A stretch of 44,328 bases of DNA. It comes from an uncultured Bacilli bacterium (GTDB taxonomy: Bacteria > Bacillota_I > Bacilli_A > RF39 > UBA660). The position numbers and the translations under genes were made by a program. The stretch lies in NCBI GenBank assembly GCA_947632715.1, contig CANRQF010000003.1, positions 1 to 44,328 of the forward strand, in the 5' to 3' direction. Shown here piece by piece: positions 25,840-37,190 of this stretch. The notes beneath the pieces are model-generated. The model was not told the DNA's origin and made no database searches. It saw only the letters and a list, made by a program, of their open reading frames with translations. Position 1 is the stretch's first letter; the number at the start of each line of letters is the position of its first letter.

Positions 25840-26180
25840 AATATTAATAAGCCATGTTCTGTACTCATTAAGAGCGACAAATATTTATCTATGCTAATGC
25901 ATCTGTTACAATAATTCAATTTCTTACGTAACAACTCCCCTACCATAAATTTGGGTTTCTCACTCGCAGGGTTTACCTCGTTTCATTTACTTGTTACCAA
26001 GCAACTCGTTTCTGTGGCACTTTGTGTCTACTAATATCTCATTAAGATAAGTTCAACGCCGTTAGTATTATACTACCTTAAGTTATTTTTTCCTTAAGTA
26101 CGAACACTACAATCATCGCAGATTGTGTGAGCATGGACTTTCCTCTATATTACTTAACTAATATAGCATTTGTCTAAATA
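25840..26180 (-). ncRNA. rnpB: RNase P RNA, class B (ends approximate)
   Basis: GAGGAAAGTCCATGCTC, AAAGTGCCACAGAAACGA, ACAGAACATGGCTTAT; follows gpsB. Confidence 0.93.
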
Positions 26181-26516
26181 TTATTCTTCTTTTCCAAAAA
26201 CTGCTTTTTCTAATTGGCTAATTCTTTTAAGCAAATCTACATTAGTCAAAGCATGAGTATTATTTTCTGCAGCAGATTTACTAACTTCAAGTTGTTCATT
26301 TAAAGATCTAATTTCTTTTTTTAATTTATTATTGTCATCAGTTAAATCTTTAATTTCTTTTTCTAATTTTTTTATATTAGAATTAAATTCTGTATAATCA
26401 CGAATAACCATATCTAGAAATTTGTCAACTTCTTGTGGTCTGTATCCTCTTGCATCAATTTTAAAGTCTTTTTCTAAAATTTCTTGCGGAGTTAAAAAAA
26501 TACGATCATTATACAA
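26181..26516 (-). CDS. gpsB: GpsB/DivIVA-domain cell division regulator
   Basis: LTPQEILEKDFK..ARGY...EVDKFLD, DLLKRISQLEKAVFG; probable TTG start. Confidence 0.9.
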   Translation of the reverse strand: MYNDRIFLTPQEILEKDFKIDARGYRPQEVDKFLDMVIRDYTEFNSNIKKLEKEIKDLTDDNNKLKKEIRSLNEQLEVSKSAAENNTHALTNVDLLKRISQLEKAVFGKEE

Positions 26517-27517: not shown

Positions 27518-27594
27518 TGGTCGAGAAGACAGGATTCGAACCTGCGACCTCACGGTCCCAAACCGCGCGCACTACCAAACTGTGCTACTTCTCG
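27518..27594 (-). tRNA. tRNA-Pro(UGG)
   Basis: Cloverleaf, loop TTTGGGA, CCA. Confidence 0.95.
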
Positions 27595-27598
27595 AAAA

Positions 27599-27675
27599 TG
27601 GTGCGTCCAGAGGGAGTCGAACCCCCAACCTTTAGATCCGTAGTCTAACACTCTATCCAATTGAGCTATGGGCGC
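27599..27675 (-). tRNA. tRNA-Arg(ACG)
   Basis: Loop CTACGGA, A20, CCA. Confidence 0.95.
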
Positions 27676-27842: not shown

Positions 27843-28583
27843 TCAAATTTTTATCTTTGTAAATAATTTACTAATATCCTCTCTTTTTATTTTAAATGCA
27901 ACTCCATGTATATCCATCTGAGGATTTCCTAAAATACTTTTTCCTTCTTTAATATACATTAACACATGTATTTTATCATTCTTAATTAATTGTAAAAATT
28001 CAAAAAATCCTTTTAATTTGTATGCTTCCATTTTTAAATATTTATAATACAATTTTTTGCTATAAGTATAAGGATAACCATAAACAATAGCTAAATAAGA
28101 TAATTTCTTTTTTAATTTGTTTTCAAGTAATTTAAAATCCCAATAACAAACAACCTCCTTAAATGTACCGTTATAATACGATTCAACATTAACTCGTGTA
28201 TTTAAATAATCCACATTTAATTTAAATTCGTATCCATTAACATTTCTAGTATAATTAGAAAATATCGTTCTACTAAAAAATATTACATCATTTGGATTAT
28301 TATTCCTATGGTAACCGTAATTCTCAATAATGTATCTTGTTGCATAGGTACCATTTCTATAAGGTGATGCTGTAAAAAGTGTTAATGGTGTTTTAGTATA
28401 CCCTAATTTGCATTTTATTTCTACACTTCCAAAATCTGGTTTACATTCTTGATCTTCTTTTTTATTTAATAGCGTTTCAAAGGTATATCCTAATCCTCCA
28501 GTACCTTTTCGCATTGCTTCAATTAATCCAATATTTTTAATTCTATTAAATTCCTTTTTTAATTTTAAAAAATCTTGATTCAT
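27843..28583 (-). CDS. MvaI/BcnI-family PD-(D/E)XK endonuclease
   Basis: RKGTGGLGYTFETLL...PDFGSVEIK...LTLF...HGVAFKI. Confidence 0.8.
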   Translation of the reverse strand: MNQDFLKLKKEFNRIKNIGLIEAMRKGTGGLGYTFETLLNKKEDQECKPDFGSVEIKCKLGYTKTPLTLFTASPYRNGTYATRYIIENYGYHRNNNPNDVIFFSRTIFSNYTRNVNGYEFKLNVDYLNTRVNVESYYNGTFKEVVCYWDFKLLENKLKKKLSYLAIVYGYPYTYSKKLYYKYLKMEAYKLKGFFEFLQLIKNDKIHVLMYIKEGKSILGNPQMDIHGVAFKIKREDISKLFTKIKI

Positions 28584-28869: not shown

Positions 28870-28945
28870 TGGTGTCTCGTTGGAGATTTGAACTCCAGAC
28901 CCTTCGATTAAAAGTCGAATGCTCTACCGACTGAGCTAACGAGAC
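28870..28945 (-). tRNA. tRNA-Lys(UUU)
   Basis: Loop CTTTTAA, CCA. Confidence 0.95.
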
Positions 28946-28959
28946 ACAAAAATAAAAAT

Positions 28960-29035
28960 TGGCTGCCCCGGCTGGGCTCGAACCAACGGAATGTCAGAGT
29001 CAAAGTCTGATGCCTTACCACTTGGCTACGGGGCA
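28960..29035 (-). tRNA. tRNA-Gln(UUG)
   Basis: Loop CTTTGAC, U1-A72, CCA. Confidence 0.95.
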
Positions 29036-29043
29036 ATTTTTAA

Positions 29044-29127
29044 TGGTGGAGGGACATGGATTTGAACCATGGAATCCGAAGAAACAGATTTACAGTCTGC
29101 CGCGTTTGACCACTTCGCTATCCCTCC
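29044..29127 (-). tRNA. tRNA-Tyr(GUA)
   Basis: Loop CTGTAAA, long variable arm. Confidence 0.95.
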
Positions 29128-29135
29128 ACATAAAA

Positions 29136-29211
29136 TGGTGCCGACAGAGGGAATCGAACCCCCAACCTATTGATTACAAGTCAATTGCGCTACCAATTAC
29201 GCTATGTCGGC
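29136..29211 (-). tRNA. tRNA-Thr(UGU)
   Basis: Loop CTTGTAA, CCA. Confidence 0.95.
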
Positions 29212-29217
29212 ATCCAA

Positions 29218-29294
29218 TGGTGGGCGATATAGGACTCGAACCTATGACCCCTTGCTTGTAAGGCAAATGCTCTAACCAACTGAGCTAATCGCCC
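29218..29294 (-). tRNA. tRNA-Val(UAC)
   Basis: Loop CTTACAA, CCA. Confidence 0.95.
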
Positions 29295-33182: not shown

Positions 33183-33530
33183 TTAATCTTTTGCTTTAAA
33201 TATGAGAGTAAAAACAAAAGAAAAGACAACTACACTTACAATAGCAATACCTGATGAACACAACATATTAGAAAATAATCCTAATATACCACTTTCTTCA
33301 TAACCAGCAAGCCCTGCTGAATACAACATATGACCAAAATTTGCAATTAAAACGGTAGCACCGGCACCAAAACAAGCAACAATTTTATCATATATTCCGA
33401 AAAATGAAAGTATTGCGCCGATAACTGTTACACTACTTGTAATATGTCCTGGAGTAAGTGTTGTATTATCAAGTACTACCTGGCAAATAAGACAAACAAG
33501 TCCGGAAAAAATGAATGCCTGTAAATACAT
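33183..33530 (-). CDS. spoVAE: stage V sporulation protein AE (SpoVAEb)
   Basis: AF..SGLVCLICQ, LTPGHI, GAGATV...FG. Confidence 0.88.
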   Translation of the reverse strand: MYLQAFIFSGLVCLICQVVLDNTTLTPGHITSSVTVIGAILSFFGIYDKIVACFGAGATVLIANFGHMLYSAGLAGYEESGILGLFSNMLCSSGIAIVSVVVFSFVFTLIFKAKD

Positions 33531-34504
33531 TATAAAACCTCCAAACTAACTGCATGAGCAATCGCAGGAATAGGACTTTTTTGATTTACAAATGTTTTGC
33601 TATGTAAAGCACCAGTTCCAATAATTAATATTTTTTTATATTTCTTTTGCGTAAGTATTTTATTAAAAAGAACCAGTGGTAAACAAGCAGGTCCACTTCC
33701 ACCAGAATAAGTTTCTTGACTTTTTAGATATAATTCACATCCTGCATCCATATGATTTTTAATTTTCAAGTTATATTCTAAAAGTGCAAATTCTTTAAAT
33801 ATACTTCCACCAACACATCCTAAATCACCAGTTAATATTAAATCGTAATAATCAACATCTCTTTTCATATCTATTAAATGCTCATTTAAAGTTCTTGCAG
33901 CAGCGGGAGCCATTACTGCTCCTAAATTATTAGCATCTTTAATTCCCATTTCTGTAACTTTACCAATTGTGGCTGATTCTATTTTTATTTTACCAGTTGT
34001 TTTCGATAAAAGTGTACTAATACCTGCTGTTGAAGTAAATGTCGATGTATGAGGTTTCGGAGTTCCATATTCAATCGGATATCTAAATTGTCTTTCCGCA
34101 CTTAAATTATGAGAGCTTGTTACACCTAAAACCGTCTTTATATTACGATCACTTAGGAAAGTACTACCCACAATTAATGATTCAGGAAAAGTTGCACAAG
34201 CACTATATATACCTAAAAGAGAGATGGGCATATTAACACTTGCATAACTTGTGGCAGAGATTTGATCTAGTAAATCACCACCTACAAGTAAATCAATATC
34301 ATTTGGTTTTAACTTATTCTTTTCCAAAATTTTTTGCATAACTACCCTTTGCATTTTAGCTTCCGCTTTTTCAAATGTTTTTTCACCATAATAATAATCT
34401 TTCATTTGTAAATCTACTTTTTTTAATTTACTATTACTTTCAAGTGGTCCTGATATAGTTAACCAATCATTTAAATAAACATTATTATATTTGATACTAG
34501 CCAT
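33530..34504 (-). CDS. spoVAD: stage V sporulation protein AD
   Basis: GGDLLDQ, SSHN.SAERQFRYP.EYG, MAPAA, TGDLG, GGSG.AC. Confidence 0.93.
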   Translation of the reverse strand: MASIKYNNVYLNDWLTISGPLESNSKLKKVDLQMKDYYYGEKTFEKAEAKMQRVVMQKILEKNKLKPNDIDLLVGGDLLDQISATSYASVNMPISLLGIYSACATFPESLIVGSTFLSDRNIKTVLGVTSSHNLSAERQFRYPIEYGTPKPHTSTFTSTAGISTLLSKTTGKIKIESATIGKVTEMGIKDANNLGAVMAPAAARTLNEHLIDMKRDVDYYDLILTGDLGCVGGSIFKEFALLEYNLKIKNHMDAGCELYLKSQETYSGGSGPACLPLVLFNKILTQKKYKKILIIGTGALHSKTFVNQKSPIPAIAHAVSLEVL

Positions 34505-34934
34505 ATAACATCACCTTTATAAGTATTAAAATAAAAGCACTAACTATACCATATAAAATAACTGATCCAGCTAATTTGAATACATTAGCACCTATTCCGG
34601 TTACTAAACCATCCCTTTTATAATCTAGGGCTGCACTTTGGACACTATGCGCAAATCCCGTTGTAGGAATTATAAGACCACATTTTGCTTTTTGAACCCA
34701 GTTATCAAATTTACCAATTGCAGTTATAAAAGTAGCAAATAAAATTAAAATAAAAGCTAACCAAGCATAAGAGTCTACTCTTGCAAGGCCAAATGATTCC
34801 ATTAATATATTGACTATTACTTCACCAAGAAAGCCAACTGAACCACCAACTAAAAAAGCAACAAGAGCATTTCTTAATTTAGGTTCTTTGGGACTTAGAC
34901 TTTTAACCAATTTTTGATATTCATCTTTGTTCAT
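34497..34934 (-). CDS. spoVAC: stage V sporulation protein AC
   Basis: AFLVGG, PTTGFA, FKLAGSVILYG. Confidence 0.92.
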   Translation of the reverse strand: MNKDEYQKLVKSLSPKEPKLRNALVAFLVGGSVGFLGEVIVNILMESFGLARVDSYAWLAFILILFATFITAIGKFDNWVQKAKCGLIIPTTGFAHSVQSAALDYKRDGLVTGIGANVFKLAGSVILYGIVSAFILILIKVMLYG

Positions 34935-34978: not shown

Positions 34979-35617
34979 TTATAAAGTTAAATATTTACGC
35001 ATTTTCGATATTCCTTTCTTCTCATATCTGGAAACCATTACTTGAGTCATATTAAGTTTTTTAGCTACTTCACTTTGCGTTAAATCTTCAAAATATCTTG
35101 ATTTTATAATATTCTTTTCATCTTCATCTAAAACGCTCATTCCTTCATCAATTAGAATTTTTGTATCATAATCTTCTTCCATACCAAGTGTTTCATAAAA
35201 ACTTTTTTCATCATCTTCCTTAATATCTAAAGACATTATGACATTAGCAGAATTACAAGCCATATTTATATCATCTAAACTTATATTTAAAAATTCTGAT
35301 AATTCATAGTTACTAGGTATTTTATTTAATTTTTGGGCTAAAATATATCTAGTTTCTTCTATTTTTTTATATAATTTTAAAATGTCTTTACTTATTTTAA
35401 TGTTTCTATTACTGGCAAGATTGTACATTTCACCAAAAATATAATCATATGCATAAGTTGAAAATTTAGTATTACTATTCTTATCATAATTTTCTAAAGC
35501 TTTTAAAAGTCCAACTACTCCAGCTTGATATAAGTCATTTTTATCAACACCATAAAAGTGGCTGGCTATCTTTCAAATCATTTTTTCATGACTTTGCATG
35601 ATATTATCATTATTTAT
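34979..35617 (-). pseudogene. sigF: SigF-like sporulation sigma factor with in-frame TGA (35575-35573); pseudogene or recoded
   Basis: Frame extends upstream of the track ORF: MQSHEKMI*KIASHFYGVDKNDLYQAGVVGLLKALENYD...FSTYAYDYIFGEM (region 2); region 4 TQSEVAKKLNMTQVMVSRYE. Confidence 0.8.
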
Positions 35618-35620
35618 TTT

Positions 35621-35926
35621 TCATCTCTCCTTTAAATAATCTTTAATATGAAGTCTTTTTAATTTTCCAAATATTTGTTTATTAACTTTGTTTAAGTATA
35701 CAATTCCCTTATAACGATCAATAAGCCATTTGGTTTTAAGAATTGAATCTAAACCATCTTCATCGATACTTTTTAATTTATCTAAATTGTAAATTACTTC
35801 TTTAATTTGATGTTTTTCTAAGATTGGTATTAAATAATTATATATTTTATAAGTAGTATTTTTATTTAAATTACCAACTAAGTTTATAAAAAGTATGCCT
35901 TCTTTATATTCCAATTCCATATCCAT
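35621..35926 (-). CDS. spoIIAA: STAS-domain anti-anti-sigma factor, SpoIIAA-like
   Basis: ILFINLVGNL, NLDKLKSIDEDGL; dacF-spoIIA synteny. Confidence 0.75.
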   Translation of the reverse strand: MDMELEYKEGILFINLVGNLNKNTTYKIYNYLIPILEKHQIKEVIYNLDKLKSIDEDGLDSILKTKWLIDRYKGIVYLNKVNKQIFGKLKRLHIKDYLKER

Positions 35927-36013
35927 ATAGTCCTCGCTACTTATACTGCACTTTTAATATAATACTTATTTTTTTTAATTTAAACACTTCCGACAAATGA
36001 TAGCAAAACAAGA

Positions 36014-36038: not shown

Positions 36039-37190
36039 CTATAAAATCTTTTTACCCATTAACATGATATCTAAATTGCGTTTAAAATAATCCCAAAGAT
36101 TAGCTTTTTTTATATCTTCACTAATTGTTATACCAATGGTACTAATTAAATTACCTTCGTTATCTATTACTTCTGCTTCTCCTACTTTATCACCTTTTTT
36201 AAGTGGTGCAACTAACTTTTTTATTTTAACATTTATGGTATAGTTTTTAGCTTTATCATTGATTCCTAATATTTCAGTTGCATCATTCATTAGAATTATT
36301 TTAACACTCTCTTTTTTACCTTTTTCTACTCTTACTTCATCTACTACTTTATCTTTTTCAAATATAGTAGATAATTTATATGAATTAAAGCCATAATTTA
36401 ATAATTTAACTGTATCACTTGTTCTATTATTAGTAGAATCTACTCCCATGACTACTGAAATAAGACGCATATCATTTTTCTTAGCAGTTGCTGTTAAACA
36501 ATAACCTGCTGTTTCGGTAAAGCCTGTTTTAAGACCATCTACATCATTATAAAATCGTACTAATTTATTAGTGTTTACTAACCATGTATTTGAGCCATCT
36601 GGTCTTTGCAAATAATCTTCATATATACTTGTATAATTTAAAATATCTGGATATTTTGTTATTAGTTCTTTGGAAATTAAAGCCATATCTCTTGCACTAC
36701 TTACATGTCCTTCAGCATCAAGTCCATGAGGATTTACAAAATGGGTATTTGTACAACCAAGACTTGCACATTTATTATTCATCATTTCTACAAATCCTTC
36801 GGTCGTACCACCAACTTTTTCAGCCATGGCCACAACGGCATCATTTGCACTAGCAATAGCAATCGATTTAATAAGTTCTCTTACTTTATATTCTTCTCCG
36901 GTATTTAAGTAAACTTGACTTCCACCCATTCCACTAGCATTAGCACTTATTAATACTTTATCATCTAAACTCAAATTGCCATTATCTATCGCTTCCATTA
37001 TTAAAAGTAAACTCATTATCTTGGTCATACTAGCTGGAGCTCTTTTAACATCCGCTTCCTTTTCATATAACACTTTACCAGTAGATACTTCCATTAATAT
37101 AGCAGATTCACTATACTCAGTAACATCAACAGCATATACTCTTCCTATACATAAAAAGAAAAAACTAAATATCAATATTATCTTCTTCAA
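36039..37190 (-). CDS. dacF: D-alanyl-D-alanine carboxypeptidase DacF
   Basis: ASMTK (SxxK), SAN, KTG; upstream of spoIIA. Confidence 0.9.
   Translation of the reverse strand: MKKIILIFSFFFLCIGRVYAVDVTEYSESAILMEVSTGKVLYEKEADVKRAPASMTKIMSLLLIMEAIDNGNLSLDDKVLISANASGMGGSQVYLNTGEEYKVRELIKSIAIASANDAVVAMAEKVGGTTEGFVEMMNNKCASLGCTNTHFVNPHGLDAEGHVSSARDMALISKELITKYPDILNYTSIYEDYLQRPDGSNTWLVNTNKLVRFYNDVDGLKTGFTETAGYCLTATAKKNDMRLISVVMGVDSTNNRTSDTVKLLNYGFNSYKLSTIFEKDKVVDEVRVEKGKKESVKIILMNDATEILGINDKAKNYTINVKIKKLVAPLKKGDKVGEAEVIDNEGNLISTIGITISEDIKKANLWDYFKRNLDIMLMGKKIL

Follow-up and report, generated by a model that had tools for sequence, protein, structure and literature searches.

How might a sporulation sigma factor gene be kept in use when one of its tryptophan codons has become UGA? 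This question is raised by the window analysed here, the whole 44,328-nucleotide stretch of DNA given above, which is contig C3 of a 92-contig, 1.23-Mb genome of an uncultured Bacilli bacterium (hereafter G000; 24.6% G+C, 88.7% complete). On the minus strand of the window, one frame runs from a STAS gene of the SpoIIAA-like type (35624..35926, 101 codons, MDMELEY...KDYLKER) through a first TGA (35621..35623), 15 further codons (KINNDNIMQSHEKMI) and a second TGA (35573..35575) into KIASHF... and the body of a SigF-like sigma factor, whose 197 open codons (34982..35572) end at TAA (34979..34981). A preliminary description of the locus had reported this single frame, with its two TGA codons followed by an uninterrupted remainder, and our analysis confirmed it. 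Two explanations had accompanied it: recent G-to-A hits that disabled sporulation, or UGA readthrough that limits sigma-F in place of a missing anti-sigma factor and possibly yields a STAS-sigma fusion. Our own answer is that the sigma gene appears to be alive in a clade of four species, and that its UGA is probably leaky.

A UGA codon at the tryptophan site of a SigF-like gene

When tryptophan was placed at the second TGA, the translated product matched sigma-70 regions 2, 3 and 4 (PF04542, PF04539 and PF04545), all above the Pfam cut-offs. Among solved structures, 1l0o_C, a sigma factor, is closest (E 2.4e-26). The second TGA, which lies in sigma region 2.1, pairs with the W of '..RLVWSVV..' in this sigma-F, as the preliminary description had recognised for SigF of B. 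subtilis. The best NCBIfam matches are SigB/F/G (139.1 bits; cut-off 234.35) and spore_sigF (TIGR02885; 137.4 bits; cut-off 321.45), so that the equivalog cut-off for SigF is not reached. The upstream gene matches the STAS family (PF01740) with 34.4 bits, and its best NCBIfam match, spore_II_AA (TIGR02886), scores 34.2 bits, below the cut-off of 114.75.

We compared the corresponding codon across the genus, in 25 species at first and in 17 more afterwards, 42 in all. It is TGA in G000, G006, G004 and G017 and TGG in the other 38, the tryptophan being invariant apart from the TGA species. Trees of the sigma gene DNA from which this codon had been removed (25 rows and 42 rows) placed the four TGA species on one side of a branch with support 100/99, and a protein tree of release factor 2 (RF2; 37 rows, with three fragments and the second, divergent G014 copy excluded) grouped G006, G004 and G017 with an SH-aLRT value of 100. 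The four species thus form a real species clade, for which a single ancestral TGG-to-TGA change suffices. Across 80 loci of the genome collection, the site is TGG in 35 (one of them belonging to another genus), TGA in 3, and a codon for Lys in 27, Tyr in 6, His in 5, Glu in 2, Arg in 1 and Gln in 1. Tryptophan at this site therefore appears, from these alignments, to be a genus-level feature that matches the Bacillus-type sigma-F by happenstance.

The second TGA is not an assembly error, because four independent species assemblies carry it, as do contigs from sequencing runs. Contigs of four runs from four studies span both TGA codons, and no difference lies there among the 40 listed of 107; for the site-spanning contigs of runs X5 and X7, every difference is accounted for away from the TGA codons. 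Run X1 is maybe the source sample, and X5, X6 and X7 are not. Among the runs listed as containing the locus, none is recorded as RNA. A pattern scan of metagenome contigs with a 20-mer around the codon gave 10 matches, all of them chance occurrences in unrelated DNA and none in a sigma gene. Since the TGA is common to four species, the strain-specific pseudogene or sequencing error that the preliminary description had named as its refutation is not what we found.

Public protein records add a complication. Three of them (P0001, P0086 and P0122) have W at the site and are 99% identical to the G004 and G017 sigma factors, and the species of G004 and G017 may be polymorphic for TGG. As proof of TGG alleles the three records fail: a STAS-sigma 'fusion' of 313 residues that has the same source (P0126, on a 960-base contig) carries W at both TGA codons, including the stop of the STAS gene. 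In metagenome mode, Prodigal calls AT-rich contigs under a table in which TGA encodes Trp. Because P0126 has W at the STAS stop, and because P0123, a 149-residue call under code 11, has the same body as P0122, the W-containing proteins look as if they had been called under such a table; we read the P0126 fusion as an annotation artefact of this kind. Public calls (P0084 and P0126) split the locus two ways, into a 149-residue fragment from an internal ATG under code 11 or a false 313-residue fusion under the TGA=Trp table.

Is the interrupted gene merely a remnant? If it were a pseudogene, the TGG-to-TGA change, together with ATG-to-ATA in G000 and G006, would record the loss of sporulation or of this sigma factor. 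G-to-A changes are the product of AT-biased mutation, ordinary TGA-interrupted genes do exist in G000, and the order RF39 is reported to have spoIIAB and spoIIE already reduced or absent (PMC10868615). The sequences downstream of the TGA tell otherwise. Over the 197 codons, the ratio of nonsynonymous to synonymous rates (dN/dS, NG86 method) lies between 0.018 and 0.151 in all comparisons within the clade, at synonymous distances (dS) of up to 1.0, so that all four species combine a conserved in-frame stop with purifying selection behind it; the 25 closest pairs of TGG species gave values from 0 to 0.27, and constraint on the frame is thus no weaker in the clade than in TGG species. The lowest value, 0.018, belongs to G000 and G006, which differ by 11 synonymous changes and 1 non-synonymous change. 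Selection extends to the 48 codons that separate the TGA from the next ATG (dN/dS 0.05-0.12). None of the four species has a further stop or frameshift in the 197 codons, whereas of 5000 neutral simulations 1% kept the frame open at 0.1 changes per site and none did so at 0.35. The low dN/dS, the open frame and the conserved promoter region lead us to reject a pseudogene, recent or old, as highly improbable, and the recent disabling hits of the preliminary description do not fit a TGA that spans four species. To judge from these patterns, the SigF-like gene appears to be functional throughout the clade despite the change of its Trp codon to UGA, and the stop, which has not reverted, is not strongly harmful.

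The reading of UGA in the genome

If UGA were simply a tryptophan codon in this organism, in an early or complete form of code 4 as in its Mycoplasmatales relatives, the interruption would be only apparent. The low G+C content of the genome and its membership of a class shared with code-4 lineages make this worth weighing, as do two relatives in the class with in-frame TGA codons in rpoD-like matches and the W at both TGA codons of P0126. We nevertheless give this explanation very little credence. Under code 11, G000 contains 1004 frames of at least 150 codons (350,303 residues), of which 112 end in TGA; after filtering for the best of the six frames, TGA ends 135 of 1196 gene-like frames (about 11%). 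ARAGORN found 29 tRNAs in G000, with one tRNA-Trp(CCA) and neither a UCA-anticodon tRNA nor a tRNA-Sec among them. The tRNA-Trp-like copies of the clade, whose genomes are incomplete, are all 100% identical to the G000 tRNA-Trp(CCA).

The release factors point the same way. In G000, prfA is complete, and of prfB the 3' end is present at the edge of contig C39. Among the 42 genomes of the genus, 37 have prfB above the family cut-off, including G006, G004 and G017 (454.8-460.8 bits), in which the SPF and GGQ motifs of RF2 are intact. A clade-specific weakness of RF2 was considered and rejected: the N-to-V change in CQNERSQ, which looked clade-specific in a set of 12 sequences, proved in a set of 40 to occur in G011 as well, and G020 has T there. 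As a separate observation, G014 (6% contamination) has two prfB genes, on contigs C66 and C18, one of them divergent (502 bits, with a different N-terminus) and probably on a foreign contig.

Nor are in-frame junctions in excess at TGA. A first coding-potential scan was dropped, as shadow frames scored like genes, and scans that take the best of the six frames were used. Junctions with coding sequence on both sides made up 4 of 135 cases for TGA (3.0%), 35 of 840 for TAA (4.2%) and 17 of 221 for TAG (7.7%) in G000. Frames in which at least 40 codons of coding sequence without a start followed the stop were somewhat more frequent for TGA (8 of 188) than for TAA (7 of 536) or TAG (1 of 226). Seven TGA candidates were scanned against Pfam, and three had a domain across the TGA. 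The first is an RNA ligase gene, found in G000 and G006 only, with TGA in G000 and TGC (Cys) in G006; the second is an AlbA_2/HATPase_c_4 gene, whose site is Arg in four relatives; and the third is a truncated Bro-N copy, for which five relatives have Trp. The residues of relatives at TGA sites thus include Cys and Arg as well as Trp, contrary to what a general tryptophan meaning would lead one to expect, and the three look like accessory genes with ordinary nonsense hits. Two scans of G000, which are not exhaustive because they miss cases with short flanks or chance starts, revealed no further core gene with an in-frame TGA.

Two of these genes lie in settings of their own. In G000, the segment C18:1065-2990 contains the single tRNA-Trp gene, an exact copy of whose last 46 bases recurs 1.8 kb later, with the TGA-interrupted AlbA_2/HATPase_c_4 gene between the two; the segment looks like a small element integrated into the tRNA-Trp gene. 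The Bro-N/DinD-like genes form a multi-copy family with matches in 33 of 42 genomes of the genus, up to five in each, and the truncated G000 copy (C6:3296-3898) carries two TGA codons.

Insertion of selenocysteine at the UGA is another conceivable meaning, and a weak hairpin is indeed predicted from 4 nt after the codon. The hairpin shows no covariation, however, the four clade genomes (82-92% complete) yielded no selA, the ARAGORN set for G000 lacks a tRNA-Sec, and the ancestral residue is Trp and not Cys, so that we regard selenocysteine as virtually negligible.

Readthrough or a new start

Where, then, does translation of the sigma gene begin? In the 38 TGG species, a GTG or ATG stands 15 codons before the Trp, and its Shine-Dalgarno sequence is encoded in the 3' end of the STAS gene. 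The corresponding Shine-Dalgarno-like sequence in the window is GGAGAG (35625..35630), which aligns with GAGGTG/AAGGAG of the relatives. Seven nucleotides after it, the ancestral start position is occupied by ATA (35615..35617), as the preliminary description had noted from its spacing; an ATG without a Shine-Dalgarno sequence, likewise noted there, follows at 35597..35599, 8 codons before the second TGA, where initiation by coupling to termination of the STAS gene may be possible. Both this ATA and the new ATG are shared by G000 and G006. In G017 the ancestral position has ATG ATG, and G004 has an ATG 12 codons ahead of the TGA. Thus, of what the preliminary description expected from relatives if readthrough were at work, the conserved TGA with low dN/dS downstream was borne out, but the ATA is confined to two of the four species. 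As an observation in its own right, G000 and G006 bear both handicaps, ATA and TGA, and yet show the strongest mutual constraint.

The first TGA requires no special explanation. Among the 41 loci of the genus in which the STAS gene was found, this gene stops at TGA in 16, at TAA in 24 and at TAG in 1, and it shares the frame of the sigma gene in 13, the third expected by chance. In G017 it lies in another frame, overlaps the sigma start and stops at TAA. Because TGA is common as the STAS stop, because frame-sharing is at the chance level and because the shared frame is absent from G017, the first TGA is an ordinary stop. A STAS-sigma fusion is not supported by these observations; it would need two readthroughs and is not conserved.

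For the second TGA, we consider leaky decoding by tRNA-Trp, throttling the output of sigma-F, to be the probable explanation on the evidence of the compared sequences. Ribosomes would start upstream, at ATG in G017 and G004 and, in G000 and G006, at the ancestral position now occupied by ATA or at the ATG that lacks a Shine-Dalgarno sequence. Most of them would terminate at the UGA through RF2 after 8-15 codons; in a small fraction, perhaps a few per cent, the sole tRNA-Trp (CCA) would decode the UGA, restoring the Trp and giving full-length sigma factor. Translation of the earliest forespore sigma factor would thereby be strongly throttled, to a degree that could follow the balance between RF2 and Trp-tRNA and hence the growth state. 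Such a throttle may be useful and not merely tolerated under AT-biased mutation. A precedent for the rate exists, since readthrough of a catA86-TGA reporter is reported to be about 6% in wild-type B. subtilis and higher when prfB is mutated (PMC7918605, citing Karow 1998).

The clearest alternative is that ribosomes terminate at the UGA and re-initiate, or use a non-canonical start, so that the stretch before the TGA would be a short upstream open reading frame and the sigma factor would lack its first ~16 residues; the ATA two codons downstream of the TGA is an example of such a start. We judge this unlikely, although several features speak for it. The leader of the clade has diverged in sequence and in length (8 to 15 codons from the ATG starts), as would be expected of a spacer reading frame, and these diverged residues keep the alternative alive. 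The sequence AAG ATA GC right after the TGA is identical in the four species, and ATA already stands at the ancestral start in G000 and G006. Against it, ATG, GTG and TTG are all absent from the 48 codons that follow the TGA, leaving the non-canonical ATA, ahead of which there is no Shine-Dalgarno-like sequence. Moreover, AAG ATA also occurs in the TGG species G024, G009, G007 and G001, so that nothing was newly created, and related genera retain ~15 residues before the position. Finally, re-initiation could follow any stop codon, yet all four species have TGA and never TAA. Of 18 third positions at which A and G are synonymous and one or more of the clade species have G, a single one retains it throughout the four, namely that of the AAG directly after the TGA. 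Because free G decays so fast and the codon has never become TAA, the pattern favours UGA specifically.

The tRNA that leaky decoding would employ has features of possible relevance. In the ARAGORN cloverleaf of tRNA-Trp, numbered by our own scheme, the D stem contains U11-A24 and the top two pairs of the anticodon stem are G-U. The Hirsh UGA suppressor of E. coli is described as tRNA-Trp G24A, and a weakened 27-43 pair is also described as promoting UGA reading (PMC13092985). A blastn search for E. coli trpT, sought for the comparison at position 24, gave no match.

Several observations weigh against leaky decoding, and we list them together. First, the leader before the TGA varies far more within the clade than among TGG species, which is unexpected if it forms part of a functional product: by eye, about 6 of the 14 residues before the TGA agree between G000 and G017, as against 12 of 14 between the TGG species G022 and G005. 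Second, the tRNA-Trp is 100% identical across most of the genus, TGG species included, and can be a permissive background only and not the cause. Third, RF2 is intact, and termination should win most passes. Fourth, no stimulatory structure emerged, the consensus fold around the site reaching -9 kcal/mol with 0 compensatory pairs. Fifth, 48 of 100 genuine TGA stops have the TGA-A context, more than have any other. Sixth, 41 of the 42 loci outside the genus have Lys, Tyr, His, Glu, Arg or Gln at the position, so that the residue is not critical. Seventh, synonymous changes within the clade total, by a rough estimate, ~1.2 per site, and an equally rough sum gives a neutral third base a chance of ~0.3 of having escaped change; retention of the TGA is compatible with neutrality, and conservation of the stop alone therefore does not demonstrate selection for it.

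Leaky decoding could be carried one step further. We put forward only tentatively, and with some doubt, that the UGA is a selected, condition-sensitive gate, at which competition between RF2 and Trp-tRNA would set the level of sigma-F in a lineage devoid of the SpoIIAB/SpoIIE switch, and at which starvation or slow growth, by raising readthrough, would license the expression of forespore genes; the same codon would then also be an 'ambiguous intermediate' of codon reassignment. In E. coli, readthrough is reported to be raised by nutrient scarcity (PMC11126739).

Gene neighbourhood and comparison with known systems

The genes around the interrupted sigma gene are those of a sporulation locus. 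In minus-strand order they are a dacF-like gene, the STAS gene, the sigma gene, spoVAC, spoVAD and spoVAEB, and the order dacF/STAS/sigma/spoVA is also kept in other loci of the genus. The dacF-like D-Ala-D-Ala carboxypeptidase gene (36039..37190, minus strand; Peptidase_S11, 273 bits; PBP5_C, 48.3 bits) lies upstream of the STAS gene as in the Bacillus dacF-spoIIA arrangement, and the three spoVA genes (33183..34934, minus strand; SpoVAC_SpoVAEB, 94.4 bits; SpoVAD, 345.4 bits; SpoVAC_SpoVAEB, 77.4 bits) lie downstream of the sigma gene, as they do in Bacillus. In the conserved promoter region, 69 nt upstream of the STAS start, stands the heptamer TGTCGGA (35989..35995, minus strand), which we take, from its likeness to the 0A-box consensus, to be a putative Spo0A-binding site. 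All four TGA species have it in that place, and in every one of the 41 loci of the genus a TGTCGRA can be found no more than 160 nt upstream. G000 also contains a sigG-like gene and a spo0A gene that exceeds its cut-off. A promoter and terminator scan gave 13 promoter-like sites, as compared with 14.4 expected, and 0 terminators.

Elsewhere in the window, three features deserve mention for themselves, all on the minus strand unless stated. The gene for ribosomal protein L20 (12636-13187) encodes 183 residues instead of the usual ~118, with a C-terminal extension that matches Rho_N (PF07498, E 1.1e-10). An RNase P RNA (class B, 246 bits) and clusters of tRNA genes occupy 25843-26181, 27521-27675 and 28873-29294, and a gene for an MvaI/BcnI-type restriction endonuclease (27843-28583, no strand assigned) lies between the tRNA clusters.

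How does this locus compare with the spoIIA operon of Bacillus and Clostridium, in which spoIIAA, spoIIAB and sigF act together with SpoIIE? The gene order, the sigma-F found as the best structural match and the Spo0A-like box are alike. The partners are not. There is no space for spoIIAB between the STAS and sigma genes in any of the 41 loci, the best SpoIIAB match in the 88.7% complete G000 genome (TIGR01925) reaches 28.9 bits against a cut-off of 135 and falls within longer kinase-like frames, and TIGR02865, the SpoIIE family, has no match in G000. The column that we take to be that of the SpoIIAA phospho-serine, chosen by the DSSG motif and read by eye, is Asp in all four clade species and variable in the 37 others (Ser 14, Ala 9, other residues 14). 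Neither SpoIIAB between the genes nor SpoIIE together with a conserved phosphorylatable serine, the marks of spoIIA partner switching, is therefore found at this locus, and the sigma factor, unlike its Bacillus and Clostridium counterparts, scores below the SigF cut-off. We also observed that the STAS protein of the clade is devoid of the C-terminal '..SSE..ALK.IEV' tail of the others, and that the changes in the phospho-column and the tail adjoin the remodelled sigma leader. As for the proposal that UGA readthrough stands in for the missing anti-sigma factor, the gap left by SpoIIAB is common to all 41 loci, and 38 of the 42 species, which share it, still have TGG; the TGA is thus a clade-specific addition and not a replacement for SpoIIAB. 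Of the readthrough explanation given in the preliminary description, the conserved TGA above a constrained frame survives, the route by readthrough is the probable one, and the stand-in role and the fusion fall away.

Leaky UGA codons are familiar from B. subtilis, through cat-86/catA86 reporters and through spoIIR TGA mutants suppressed by prfB mutations; both settings concern Bacillota, and spoIIR, like sigF, is related to sporulation. Those cases are laboratory mutants and reporters, whereas here a natural allele is found in four species, at an ancestral Trp, in the sigma-F gene itself. The amino acid inserted at UGA in B. subtilis is reportedly Trp, a result credited to Lovett in 1991. A full-text literature search found no paper describing an in-frame UGA in sigF or in another sporulation sigma gene.

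Natural in-frame stops have also been surveyed. Belinky et al. (2021) report conserved in-frame stops with low dN/dS, most of them of about the age of single-nucleotide polymorphisms and enriched in mobile genes (PMC7918605). The sigF TGA resembles these in being an orthologous nonsense codon present in several genomes, with dN/dS well below 1, and in being read as a cut in expression; it differs in spanning up to ~1 synonymous change per site and in affecting a core developmental regulator. Bacterial core genes have few natural readthrough sites of long standing. The one proposed here would affect the earliest of the cell-type-specific sporulation sigma factors, and the order concerned has already lost the textbook anti-sigma switch.

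A sigma factor limited by a poor codon near its 5' end has a counterpart in Streptomyces SigR, for which a GTC start is reported to limit translation through IF3 (PMC5472188). In both, the output of a sigma factor would be restricted translationally, and the ATA at the start position of G000 and G006 adds to the likeness. The limit in SigR, however, lies at initiation, whereas here a stop codon stands inside the frame.

Finally, the locus may be set beside lineages in which UGA is read as Trp, such as the Mycoplasmatales, and beside altered tRNA-Trp(CCA) molecules that suppress UGA (the Hirsh G24A change and a 4-bp anticodon stem; PMC13092985). The AT-rich genome, the Trp site, the A24 and the weak top of the anticodon stem are shared features. 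In contrast to the UGA=Trp lineages, RF2 is kept here, TGA is a common stop, no UCA tRNA was found and one conserved gene is affected; in contrast to the altered suppressor tRNAs, species that lack the TGA have this same tRNA. The locus offers a natural case for studying how AT-rich Bacilli akin to the Mycoplasmatales begin to tolerate UGA in place of Trp codons. If the proposed gate were real, it would be a natural 'ambiguous intermediate', with UGA fixed at a Trp site while RF2 is present, CCA is the only tRNA-Trp anticodon and the genome has 25% G+C, and this is the first step predicted by theories of UGA-to-Trp reassignment.

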